Source: Infirmifilum sp. (GTDB taxonomy: Archaea; Thermoproteota; Thermoprotei; Thermofilales; Thermofilaceae). Taken from it: a stretch of DNA of 64,000 bases. The notes below the pieces were generated by a model. That model was not told where the DNA came from. It worked only from the letters and a program-made list of their open reading frames with translations, and searched no databases. Numbering within the stretch: position 1 is the stretch's first letter; each line of letters starts with the position of its first letter. The stretch lies in assembly GCA_041287245.1 (NCBI GenBank), contig JBEULP010000108.1, positions 27,860 through 91,859 on the forward strand, given 5' to 3'. Below, one piece after another: positions 5,073 to 19,366 of this stretch. Made by a program: the position numbers and the translations under genes.

Positions 5073-5097
5073 CTTTCAATTCATTCTCTTCGGATAC
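5073..5097 (-). CRISPR. Solitary CRISPR repeat variant GTATCCGAAGAGAATGAATTGAAAG
   Basis: The reverse complement matches the 18934/18998 repeat at 23 of 25 positions and ends in ATTGAAAG. An AT-rich leader-like stretch lies 5' on the minus strand. No second repeat is visible nearby. Confidence 0.7.
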
Positions 5098-12242: not shown

Positions 12243-13739
12243 TTGAAGAGAGCAATCGGTCGCAACGTACTGATAGCGATAATTCTTGTTCTTGTAGCCG
12301 TGGGAATAATAATCTTCTATCAGCTAAGCCTACCCCCAACACAGCCCTCCCAGCCTAGCCAGCCTTCTCAACCCTCTCAGCCTTCTCAACCAAGCCAGCC
12401 TTCCCAGCCCAGTCAGCCTTCGCAGCCAACAAATGCTACACAGCCGCAACAACCTCCACCCTCAACGCTACAGACTATAACTATCGGGACAAGCACTATC
12501 AGGGTTCCCAACGACTTTTATGACTTTGTATCAAAGGTCAAGTCTGGACAGCTAAAAGTTACGATAAACTTCTGGACCGGGATGAGCCAGTGGGAAGTAG
12601 ATGTTATGAAGAATGTGCTAAACAAGTTCCAACAAGAGTATCCCGGGATAACCGTCAAGTATACCAACGTTCAGAACCTCAAGGAACAGGTTAAGGCTGG
12701 AGTACTCACGGGCGACGTAGAAAACACAGCTCATGTTTTCACATGGGCCCACGATTGGACCGGAGACCTTGCAGACAGCGGAACAATTATAGCCCTGGAC
12801 AAGTACCTCCCGCCTGAGACCCTGGTGGATTTGAAGGGCCAGTATATGTCTTCTGCCTACCTAAGCGGCATGTACAAGCTCCACCTTTATGGCCTGCCGT
12901 GGGCCGCCGAGGCCATAGCTCTAGTCTGCAACAAGGATCTCGTGCCAAATGCCCCGCAAACCTGGGGTGACTATGAGAAGATAATGCAGCAGTGGTACAA
13001 CCCGTCAAAGAACACTTACGGGATAGCTTACCAGATTGACCCGTACCACGTCTACCCGTTTGTCACGGCATTTGGAGGATACTACTACGACGAGGATAAA
13101 AATACAGTGGGCGTGAACTCCACTGGAACCCTCAATGGGCTTACCTTCTACGTCACACACGTAATGAAGTACATGTATACATCTGACGTTGGAATGGAGA
13201 CGCAGCTCAAAATACTCCTTGAGGGTAGAACACCCTGCATGGTCACAGGCCCCTGGAACATTCCGACGATAAAGCAGACGATAAAGAACGTCGTCGTCTA
13301 CTCCATACCGCCCATCGATGGTAAGACCCCCAAGCCGTTCTCAGGCGTGAAGCAGCTCTGGATAACCAAGGTGGTCGAGGGCGACAAGAACAGGCTATAT
13401 GCCTCCATACTCTTCACAATGTGGTTCACGCTCAACGACGACACATTGAAGACTCTCGTCGACGCTGGCTACATACCGGTCAAACTCTCAATCCTCCAGT
13501 ACCTGCAGTCTAATGCTGACAAGTATCCTACTATACTCGGCTTCGCACAGGCCGTTTCAAACAGCATACCGATGCCGAAGTCTGCCAACATGAACTACGT
13601 GTGGAGCCCTGTGAGCGACGCTCTGAACGCTATTGTTACGAAATACAACGAAGCTGGCCCCGACGCCGCTGTGAGCATCATTCCGCAGTTGCTTAATGAC
13701 GCACAAGCAAAGATTATATCCAAGATAAGCGGGCAGTAA
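12243..13739 (+). CDS. malE: Maltose/maltodextrin ABC transporter substrate-binding protein
   Basis: FTWAHDW, YGLPWAAEAIAL, TGPWN and KPFSGVK motifs; N-terminal TM and a Q/P/S linker. Confidence 0.85.
   Translation: MKRAIGRNVLIAIILVLVAVGIIIFYQLSLPPTQPSQPSQPSQPSQPSQPSQPSQPSQPSQPTNATQPQQPPPSTLQTITIGTSTIRVPNDFYDFVSKVKSGQLKVTINFWTGMSQWEVDVMKNVLNKFQQEYPGITVKYTNVQNLKEQVKAGVLTGDVENTAHVFTWAHDWTGDLADSGTIIALDKYLPPETLVDLKGQYMSSAYLSGMYKLHLYGLPWAAEAIALVCNKDLVPNAPQTWGDYEKIMQQWYNPSKNTYGIAYQIDPYHVYPFVTAFGGYYYDEDKNTVGVNSTGTLNGLTFYVTHVMKYMYTSDVGMETQLKILLEGRTPCMVTGPWNIPTIKQTIKNVVVYSIPPIDGKTPKPFSGVKQLWITKVVEGDKNRLYASILFTMWFTLNDDTLKTLVDAGYIPVKLSILQYLQSNADKYPTILGFAQAVSNSIPMPKSANMNYVWSPVSDALNAIVTKYNEAGPDAAVSIIPQLLNDAQAKIISKISGQ
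12342..12428 (+). repeat. Coding tandem repeat (Gln-Pro-Ser)x9 plus Gln-Pro linker
   Basis: 9-nt period CARCCNWSN with synonymous variation inside the malE linker. Confidence 0.9.
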
Positions 13740-17105: not shown

Positions 17106-17218
17106 ACACCTTATGTAGCATGCTATTTATAAAAAATCTTTCCAGCCAGGGCTACCGATTACATCCAATTCTTAAGTCATATTTTTTAACTCCCTCCACC
17201 ATTCAGATAATGACGTGC

Positions 17219-18550
17219 ATGCCCGAAGAGTTTGAACCATACCCCGAATTCGTAAAGTGGGACCATATCCCAGACCTCGAAAGAGAGGTTGTAGTTACAT
17301 TCCGCCTTGTCCCCGGGGAGGGTTTCACCGTGGACGATGCTGCAGGAGCTGTTGCCGCAGAAAGCAGCGTCGGGACTTGGACTACACTCTACGAGTGGTA
17401 CGACAAGAGCCGGATTAACAGTTTGAAGGGCAAAGCGTATCAGAAAAAGCCCCTGCCAGACGGGTCTTTCCTTGTCCGAGTTGCTTACCCGGTAGAGCTT
17501 TTCGAGGAAGGGAACATGCCTGCATTTCTAGCATCAGTTGCTGGCAATATTTTCGGCATGAAACGCGTAAAGTCTCTAAGGGTTGAGGACATATATCTAC
17601 CTAAGCCATTCCTTGACTTTTTCAAAGGACCATCTAAGGGAATACCGGGTATACGCGAAGTTATGCGTATCTCAAGGAGGCCCATAATAGGTACGGTTCC
17701 CAAGCCTAAGGTCGGTTACTCGCCTGACGAGGTTGAGAGGCTCGCCTACGAACTACTTATAGGCGGTATGGATTATGTTAAGGATGACGAGAACATTGCC
17801 AGCCCAAGCTACTGCAGGTTTGAGGAGAGGGCGAAGGCTATAATGAAGGCGATCGACAGGGCTGAGAGGGAGACGGGCGAGAGAAAAGCCTGGTTTGCAA
17901 ACATCACGGCAGATGTTAGGGAGATGGAGCGAAGGCTGAAGCTCGTAGCAGAGTATGGAAATCCATACGTTATGGTCGATGTGGTAATAACTGGATGGTC
18001 AGCTCTGACATACATCAGAGATCTCGCCGAGGAGTATGGACTAGCTATCCACGGCCACAGAGCCATGCATGCGGCATTCACTCGGAACGAGTATCACGGC
18101 ATATCAATGTTTACCCTTGCGAAGCTCTTCAGAATTATTGGAATAGACCAGCTTCACGTTGGTACACCCGAGGTAGGCAAGCTGGAAGCTAAGGCAGTCG
18201 ACGTTCAGCGCAACGCTCGTGTCCTGAGGGATGCAGCGTATGTCCCGGACTCCGAGGACTTCTTCCATCTTAATCAACCCTTCGGCTCCATGAAACCCTC
18301 CTTCCCCGTGGCAAGCGGTGGGCTACACCCCGGGACTCTCCCGGAGGTCATAAGGAAGATGGGGGAAGACATAGTGATACAAGTTGGCGGTGGTGTTGTC
18401 GGCCACCCAGACGGCCCTAGAGCTGGTGCTGCAGCCGCGAGACAAGCGGTCGAGGCTACGCTTGAGGGAATAGACCTCTCCGAGTACGCAAAAACCCACC
18501 ACGAGCTTGCACGGGCTATCGAGAAATGGGGCTTTGTAAGGCCTGCGTGA
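17219..18550 (+). CDS. rbcL: Ribulose-1,5-bisphosphate carboxylase, archaeal form III
   Basis: AAESSVGTWT, PKPKVG, DYVKDDE, HGHRAMHAA and ASGGLHPG. The start is set at ATG 17219 (MPEEF, 443 aa). Confidence 0.95.
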   Translation: MPEEFEPYPEFVKWDHIPDLEREVVVTFRLVPGEGFTVDDAAGAVAAESSVGTWTTLYEWYDKSRINSLKGKAYQKKPLPDGSFLVRVAYPVELFEEGNMPAFLASVAGNIFGMKRVKSLRVEDIYLPKPFLDFFKGPSKGIPGIREVMRISRRPIIGTVPKPKVGYSPDEVERLAYELLIGGMDYVKDDENIASPSYCRFEERAKAIMKAIDRAERETGERKAWFANITADVREMERRLKLVAEYGNPYVMVDVVITGWSALTYIRDLAEEYGLAIHGHRAMHAAFTRNEYHGISMFTLAKLFRIIGIDQLHVGTPEVGKLEAKAVDVQRNARVLRDAAYVPDSEDFFHLNQPFGSMKPSFPVASGGLHPGTLPEVIRKMGEDIVIQVGGGVVGHPDGPRAGAAAARQAVEATLEGIDLSEYAKTHHELARAIEKWGFVRPA

Positions 18551-18551
18551 A

Positions 18552-19366
18552 ATGGCTGAGGCTAAGACTCTGATCATAGCCCACGGCGACTGTGACGGGG
18601 TTACTTCGGCAGCTCTAGCGCTCTCTATATACGCAGGTAAGGTCGTGTTCTCTCACCCTGTAGGCATCCTTGGAGACCTGGACGAGTTCTCAGAGGATGC
18701 GGACAGGATAGTAATCCTAGATATAGCCTTAGATGAGAGGCATTGGAGACAACTTGCGGAAAGACTCGCTGGGTATTGGGAAGCTATATACGTGGATCAC
18801 CACCCCCCTCCTGTGGGATCGCTAGAGTTCCTGCGGGAGAAAGGAGTGAAAGTAAACCACGAGGAGAATGCGTGCACAGCAGAGCTCACCTTCAGGTATC
18901 TAAAGCCTAGGGCTGACCTTAGCCGCGTAGCTCGTATCAGAAAAGAATGAATTGAAAGATGGCGTAGTCACCTATGCATCCGTATAGAGCTACGCGGGTA
19001 TCAGAAAAGAATGAATTGAAAGAGCAGGCTACGGTAATAGAGGAGGCACGCGAGAAACTCCCAAAGCGCTTAAAGGTTCTGAAGAACATAGCGTTTGTAG
19101 AGCACCCAGAGGCCAGCCTGGGGATAATGGCTTTCTATGCCGCAGTGGTCTCAGGTATGAGGGTGGGAGTTGCTATAGAAGTTAAAGACGGGTGGGCGGT
19201 AATGAGCCTAAGGGCTAAGGATCCACGCGTAGACCTCAACAGCCTGCTACGTAACATCGCGCCTTCATTTAAGGGCCATGGCGGAGGACATAGGAGTGCG
19301 GCAGGCGCCAGGGTCCCCCTAGAAAATCTGACAGCCTTTCTTTCAGCCCTGGATGAAAGCCTTTAG
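18552..19366 (+). pseudogene. DHH/DHHA1 phosphoesterase gene disrupted by a CRISPR repeat-spacer-repeat that replaces its middle
   Basis: The N-part (18552-18933) has HGDCDG, ILDIA, YVDHH and CTAEL. The C-part (19023-19366) has SLR...GGGHRSAAG (DHHA1). The first repeat supplies a TGA at 18948-18950, and the central region is missing. Confidence 0.85.
18934..19022 (+). CRISPR. Mini CRISPR array: two identical 25-nt repeats GTATCAGAAAAGAATGAATTGAAAG and one 39-nt spacer
   Basis: Repeats at 18934-18958 and 18998-19022 end in the archaeal ATTGAAAG handle. The spacer at 18959-18997 is ATGGCGTAGTCACCTATGCATCCGTATAGAGCTACGCGG. Confidence 0.88.

Follow-up and report, generated by a model that had tools for sequence, protein, structure and literature searches.

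A CRISPR repeat–spacer–repeat unit standing in place of most of its own target in a chromosomal DHH/DHHA1 gene of Infirmifilum sp.

How a piece of CRISPR array came to stand inside a chromosomal gene, at the very site from which its spacer derives, is the question raised by a DHH/DHHA1 phosphoesterase gene of Infirmifilum sp., a hot-spring archaeon of the Thermofilaceae. The window, i.e. the whole stretch of 64,000 nucleotides that was analysed, is a portion of contig C19 of a host genome (G000) of 1.81 Mb in 119 contigs. The locus was examined for whether the allele is real, where its spacer and repeats come from, by which route they may have entered the gene, and what the resulting unit might do.

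Layout of the locus and reality of the allele

The layout given by the initial annotation, a DHH gene that is broken at 18933 and resumed at 19023 with a repeat, a 39-nt spacer and a second repeat in between, was seen as claimed (Table 1). Each junction coincides to the base with the end of a repeat, none being added or lost, and the gene is frameshifted: the open frame of the 5′ remnant enters repeat 1 by 5 residues and meets a stop codon at 18950, giving a truncated product of 132 aa, in agreement with the proposed knock-out. The repeat finder gave 26-nt repeats, since an A follows both copies; the true length is 25 nt, with repeat boundaries set by flank variation in arrays.

Table 1 Features of the DHH/DHHA1 locus (positions of the window)
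Feature	Coordinates	Strand	Remarks
Form III RuBisCO gene	17120..18550	+	TIGR03326, 629.6 bits (cut-off 497)
DHH/DHHA1 phosphoesterase gene, 5′ remnant	18552..18933	+	127 codons + 1 nt; PF01368
Hypothetical sense-strand spacer arm Sa	18892..18933	+	Putative; TCA at 18892–18894 for an arm of the modal 39 nt, CCT at 18889–18891 for one of 42 nt
Protospacer residue kept in the gene	18923..18933	+	11 nt; exact inverted match to 18987–18997
CRISPR repeat 1	18934..18958	+	Exact 25-mer without upstream leader; 3′ end ATTGAAAG
Spacer	18959..18997	+	39 nt; antisense to the deleted centre of the DHH gene; predicted self-folding
CRISPR repeat 2	18998..19022	+	Same sequence as repeat 1
DHH gene, 3′ remnant (DHHA1 domain)	19023..19366	+	PF02272; restarts at the first base past repeat 2

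The gene was assigned to the DHH/DHHA1 family on the presence of the PF01368 and PF02272 domains and of the DxDG, DHH and GGGH motifs, the 5′ part matching Pfam DHH and the 3′ part Pfam DHHA1; no NCBIfam equivalog was reached for its intact relatives. Contig C82 carries another, more distantly related DHH gene whose open frame spans 339 aa. The start of the interrupted gene is situated 1 nt past the stop codon of the form III RuBisCO gene, which makes one shared transcript for the two likely. A scan for sigma-70 promoters, a model unsuited to archaea, gave background levels. The RuBisCO III–DHH gene pair is kept in relatives (loci L048 and L050). Elsewhere in the window, a nine-base repeat encoding a Pro-Ser-Gln linker was seen at 12333–12431, near the start of a gene (12243–13739) with an ordinary product resembling sugar-binding lipoproteins.

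For verification of the allele, Logan contigs from three public runs (X1, X2 and X3) were compared with the locus; these runs belong to one study of about 6× depth, which is possibly the source of the genome itself, and contigs drop rare alleles. In X1 and X3, single contigs of 3236 and 2916 nt carry the unit in one piece along a whole 2-kb stretch, with 3 and 6 base differences, respectively. The X2 contig is missing 64 nt (one repeat and the spacer), leaving a single repeat with the same junctions, and this form is most simply read as a later loss of spacer and repeat. Such loss by recombination between repeats is described as common in the accessible part of PMC8047081. Both forms leave the DHH gene knocked out.

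No piece of an intact allele, and none of an array bearing these sequences, was found in the contigs of any of the three runs, 33-nt matches having been detectable by the same approach at contig C35. Outside the spacer, the missing centre of the DHH gene is absent from the assembly. A public protein collection includes the truncated 132-aa product (3 members), and the best full-length relative reached 65% identity (5 matches among 1116 candidates, in searches from which near-identical records may be missing); the closest named proteins are those of Infirmifilum. It is therefore very unlikely that the assembler threaded from the gene into an array via self-spacers and back again while the real gene is intact, even though threading of this kind does occur in the assembly at C35, where run X2 disagrees, and even though the three runs share the origin given above; a minority intact allele may still be present. 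The presence of a repeat–spacer–repeat within the DHH gene is confirmed.

Two sites of the same genome were found to be of another kind. On C35 (L022:4939–5311), a leader, a repeat and a 41-nt spacer run into an unrelated ORF, which is an assembly chimera; X2 has a repeat after the spacer. On C17 (L023:5400–5552), two repeats at the contig end are joined to 5.4 kb of unassigned, mobile-element-like ORFs, probably a similar chimera.

Origin of the spacer and identity of the repeat

The spacer is derived from the DHH gene in antisense orientation, as the initial annotation had proposed. The stretch 18923–18933 recurs, exactly and in reverse complement, as the final 11 nt of the spacer, and the match goes no further; the chance of an 11-nt match is about 1.4e-5 with any offset within the spacer allowed. 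Reverse-complemented, the spacer reads RVALYGCIGDYA, and at the corresponding place the LYGxIGDY-type motif anticipated from the gene family was found as RVA[LIV]YG[AS]I[GCSA]D[YH] in all 17 close orthologs (L002–L018; the distant paralogs L019 and L020 were excluded from 19 rows). The best ungapped match of the 39-nt spacer fell at the expected position in each of these 17 sequences (23–28 of 39 nt identical; runner-up 17–23).

The central block said to be missing from the gene measures 216 nt (about 72 codons) against 16 of the 17 orthologs, and 89 nt stand in its place. The further claim that most of the protospacer is deleted also holds, 28 of its 39 bases being gone. In the three orthologs nearest to this gene, 20, 20 and 22 of these 28 nt are the same, the flanks reaching 59–64%. 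The Cys of the spacer reading occurs at that residue in 0 of 17 orthologs and no intact conspecific allele was found, for which reason the nucleotide-exact identity of the deleted 28 nt to the spacer is presumed. Searches for such an allele gave 0 matches in a degenerate pattern scan of metagenome contigs and 1 distant locus only in a protein scan (423 candidates), both scans being liable to omit near-identical records. If the PAM is 5′, the retained stretch 18923–18933 is the PAM-distal end of the protospacer. The deletion starts within the protospacer and extends to the side of a 5′ PAM, a direction that would suit self-targeting with Cas3-type degradation guided by the spacer seen.

The spacer covers a quasi-palindrome. 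As RNA it has a strong predicted self-fold at 37 °C (z −3.2) and hardly any at 85 °C; an equally strong fold was predicted for 4 of 362 spacers, and of 217 antisense 39-mers sampled from what is left of the gene, none was predicted to fold as strongly at 37 °C. On this modelling, breakage or tolerance might have been favoured by hairpin formation at the native site.

The 25-mer, which had been put forward as a CRISPR repeat, is identical to the repeat of leader-bearing arrays in two related genomes (G001 and G005) and on C35 of the host genome, 71 of the 72 repeats of one G005 array (L039) being the same, and is the canonical CRISPR repeat of this genus. Rfam returned CRISPR-DR27 only, at 20.7 bits against a gathering threshold of 35 (E 3.9), so that no family was above threshold. 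On C35 the 25-mer follows a leader and adjoins a type I-A module. A length of 39 nt is modal among spacers of the host genome and its relatives (98 of 362). The scan of genome contigs for the repeat gave 2 loci, a tighter repeat pattern was present in 5 of 120 genomes of the class, and both repeat and genus name were absent from the 5 supplementary files of PMC8482600. The unit in the DHH gene has no leader: the 60 nt preceding it are coding, contain 23% A and share 13–15 of 60 positions with leaders, the other leader sites scoring 25–40 of 60.

With respect to cas type, the genome encodes two type I-A modules, a III-B module, a III-D-like module, and cas1, cas2, cas4 and csa1. Matches over the cut-off were obtained for Cas7/Csa2 (twice), Cas3′, Cas10/Cmr2, Cmr1, Cmr4, Cmr5 and Cmr6, and for Cas1, Cas2, Cas4 and Csa1; those for Cas6 and Cas3″ were under the curated cut-offs, and Cas8a was not named.

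Further repeats were recorded in the host genome and its relatives. At 5073–5097 on the − strand of the window, one repeat that differs from the DHH repeat by 2 mismatches follows a leader, without any spacer, and an X2 contig has the same leader and repeat. Similar sites occur on C64 and, twice, on C82; the arrays of this genome thus look mostly empty or collapsed. On C70 (L026:2571–2625), a leaderless repeat with about 26 nt stands at the end of a long gene that is convergent with a putative SAM synthetase gene, and provides the last codons and stop of the long gene. Additional leaderless single repeats with 1–4 mismatches, intergenic where the context was readable, were located at L029 (C82:52304), L024 (C6:10158), L031 (C96:24073), L027 (C80:2543) and, in G005, L051:1974–1998. 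Small intergenic mini-arrays with degenerate end repeats and without the usual A-rich leader were seen in G017 (L071:1504–1592) and G021 (L042:8400–8546), and at least 7 short arrays (1–11 repeats) with near-identical leaders are scattered over the complete genome G001 (L043–L047).

Routes by which the unit may have entered the gene

The account favoured here as the simplest that known steps allow, tentatively and at somewhat less than an even chance, is that an array with three neighbouring self-spacers recombined into the gene through its outer, sense-strand spacers. Breaks or self-targeting at the DHH locus would have fed Cas1–Cas2, yielding an array Sa-R-Sb-R-Sc (R, repeat) in which Sa ends at 18933 and Sc starts at 19023, both in sense orientation, and Sb is the antisense spacer seen. 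Sa and Sc, of about 39 nt each, would have served as homology arms while R-Sb-R was swapped in for the centre of the gene; equal to the gene, both arms would now be invisible. The swap would have taken away the Sb target and could have been selected for that, and the step from there to the single-repeat form present in the contigs would likely be the subsequent loss noted above.

Spacer–repeat joints are the product of Cas1–Cas2, and junctions placed exactly at repeat ends point to joints made by Cas1. The recombination account is also supported by the match of the 25-mer to leader-bearing arrays, the modal spacer length, and a full adaptation module beside I-A and III effectors. Recombination between spacer and protospacer has reportedly been described (Varble et al. 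2019). For Sa, motifs were found at appropriate distances, the left junction being preceded at exactly 39 nt by a TCA and at 42 nt by a CCT; the type I-A Cascade of T. tenax cleaves CCT and, more weakly, TCA, according to the available text of PMC4005679. This motif support is weak, because the PAM of the lineage was not found and TC and CC motifs are common, one or the other being expected by chance in the usual length range about 1 time in 3 (an estimate from 5.8% TC and 5.5% CC). Self-targeting in Haloferax gives spacers from both strands near the target, as stated in the accessible portion of PMC7521656.

Several points stand against this account. Three self-spacers would be toxic given an active I-A system, and the Sa target retains its 5′ flank after the swap; two arms of 39 nt are short for gene conversion; and there is one event only, no second in-gene example having been found at the repeat sites of the host genome or at the fetched loci of G001, G004, G005, G017 and G021. 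A donor array with Sa, Sb or Sc was present neither in the host genome nor among the 362 spacers of this genome and its relatives, and the sole readable first spacer, at C35, is unrelated to the DHH gene.

Self-targeting is plausible as the trigger. The position of the Sb PAM is occupied by TCN in 6 and by CCN in 1 of the 17 orthologs, the flank itself being deleted in the DHH allele. No convincing protospacer was found for the 362 spacers within the host genome and the fetched loci (best, 7 mismatches), and none in phage and plasmid collections (1 weak, unrelated match), in 120 genomes of the class (one array as query) or in viral contigs.

Unlikely, yet the first of the alternatives, is growth in place, whereby a leaderless single repeat landed at the right junction, took up Sb from about 200 nt away and then Sa, after which a deletion between two 39-nt copies of Sa removed the target. 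One crossover would be enough here, and no Sa guide would be left behind. Leaderless single repeats do exist in this genome (C70, C82:52304, C6, C96 and C80), the one on C70 sitting between convergent genes whose stops are 0–2 nt apart or overlapping in 4 of 5 relatives, and the part of PMC7521656 that was available reports that spacers are acquired close to active CRISPR loci. However, the insertion of the first repeat is left unexplained by this route, integration would have to be leaderless given the low leader identity of the upstream 60 nt, and no intermediate allele was seen in the contigs of the three runs.

Rather unlikely as well is a direct joining by Cas1–Cas2, in which the two chromosome ends of a self-targeting break would have been treated as prespacer ends, one being joined to the start of a repeat and the other to the end of the following repeat, and repair would then have excised R-Sb-R into the break. 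From the chemistry of Cas1, such joining would predict the same exact junctions and the correct polarity of each end, as the sequence has them, and a break inside the protospacer with deletion toward the PAM side is consistent with it. It would nevertheless need two half-site reactions at different repeats and a resolution without lasting rearrangement, and no paper describing such an event was found in the literature searched.

The least probable route is repair templated by the spacer (array DNA or crRNA), or blunt end-joining capture of an array fragment: although the spacer matches the break site, and microhomology-mediated deletions follow self-targeting in Haloferax (available text of PMC7521656 and PMC6990116), templating predicts the reverse of the orientation seen and random capture seldom ends exactly on both repeat boundaries. 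Copying from spacer DNA or crRNA would give sense gene through the whole protospacer and then a reverse-complement repeat, whereas gene, forward repeat, inverted spacer, forward repeat and gene were seen; since it is inverted relative to the gene, the spacer itself is ruled out as repair template. The initial annotation had called the event a CRISPR-templated knock-out; of that interpretation, the origin of the spacer, the deletion, the knock-out and the genuine repeat stand, and templating through this spacer is abandoned.

Two further candidates were set aside. A target-site duplication was rejected, the repeat being the array repeat, and the repeat at 5073–5097 is unlikely as donor, being mismatched, in opposite orientation and 13.8 kb away.

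A possible homing function and comparison with known systems

It is doubtful, though conceivable from the arrangement of the parts, that the unit acts as a natural CRISPR homing cassette, being transcribed within the RuBisCO–DHH message, having its guide freed by the Cas6 of the host, and directing type I-A or III complexes to undisrupted copies of the gene, so that repair from the disrupted allele would spread the knock-out. The repeats are co-directional with RuBisCO and DHH, so a putative guide could be released by Cas6 that is antisense to the message of an intact allele and matches its DNA. Flanked by homologous sequence, the guide occupies the site of its target, 28 of whose 39 bases are lost from the carrier. 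Spacer DNA flanked by repeats is a context left uncut by the T. tenax Cascade (PMC4005679, as far as available). The single-repeat allele would, under homing, be an immune, non-driving decay product, and the strong self-fold at 37 °C could make for a weak, tolerated guide.

Among 4 consensus sequences, the intact allele was found in none, and 4 variable gene sites were counted, one of them 16 nt from the left junction. At all 3 amino-acid differences, both alternatives occur in intact orthologs (background 0.26, and 0.39 where the change is to Glu; p ~0.02–0.06, post hoc). Against homing, a decaying pseudogene would also account for 3 non-synonymous changes among the 4 differences, a contig is not a haplotype, co-direction has a 1-in-2 chance, and drift in one spring would suffice.

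The unit is real, and is regarded as an unusual variant of known parts, represented by a single case with a mechanism that we infer. In the literature covered (titles and abstracts, subscription papers being largely outside this scope), no repeat–spacer–repeat replacing its own chromosomal target was found, and the locus therefore presents an outcome of CRISPR autoimmunity that was not found described, namely the replacement of the target, within the host gene itself, by array DNA with integrase-precise ends. It suggests how a CRISPR system may come to edit the chromosome that encodes it and to spread leaderless repeats to new positions. Its guide-in-target layout also opens to testing a question that has long been discussed, whether the CRISPR machinery of a host can make an allele spread by drive in a natural population of prokaryotes; present evidence comes from one allele in one population.

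Neo-CRISPR units, which according to Nivala, Shipman and Church are said to arise from off-target integration by Cas1–Cas2, share with the DHH unit a leaderless repeat–spacer–repeat outside an array. Their 'repeats' are reportedly duplications of the landing site with nothing deleted, and this identity was rejected for the DHH unit, which has true array repeats and has lost 216 nt. The phage–CRISPR recombination reported by Varble et al. 2019 has in common the use of 30–40 nt spacers as homology; in the DHH case the partner is a chromosomal gene of the host, and a piece of array is swapped into it. Virus-borne mini-CRISPR arrays, reportedly described by Medvedeva et al. 2019, resemble the DHH unit as one-spacer units that rely on the Cas proteins of the host and match a related allele, whereas the DHH unit is chromosomal, lies leaderless in a housekeeping-type gene, and replaces its target rather than standing beside it.

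Homing endonucleases and the bacterial Pro-AG system, the latter consisting of engineered guide-in-target cassettes, share with the DHH unit targeting information at the target site, homologous flanks, and a carrier allele without target. Unlike homing elements, the DHH unit encodes no nuclease, and its host gene is destroyed instead of being spliced.

In Haloferax, escape from type I-B self-targeting proceeds by end-joining deletion of the target, homologous restoration, or loss of the spacer or of cas genes (available portions of PMC7521656 and the review PMC6990116). A self-derived spacer, a target-removing deletion and spacers from near the target are shared with the DHH locus; in the text available from these two sources, no CRISPR repeats or guide are left at the Haloferax junctions, whereas the DHH locus keeps both.
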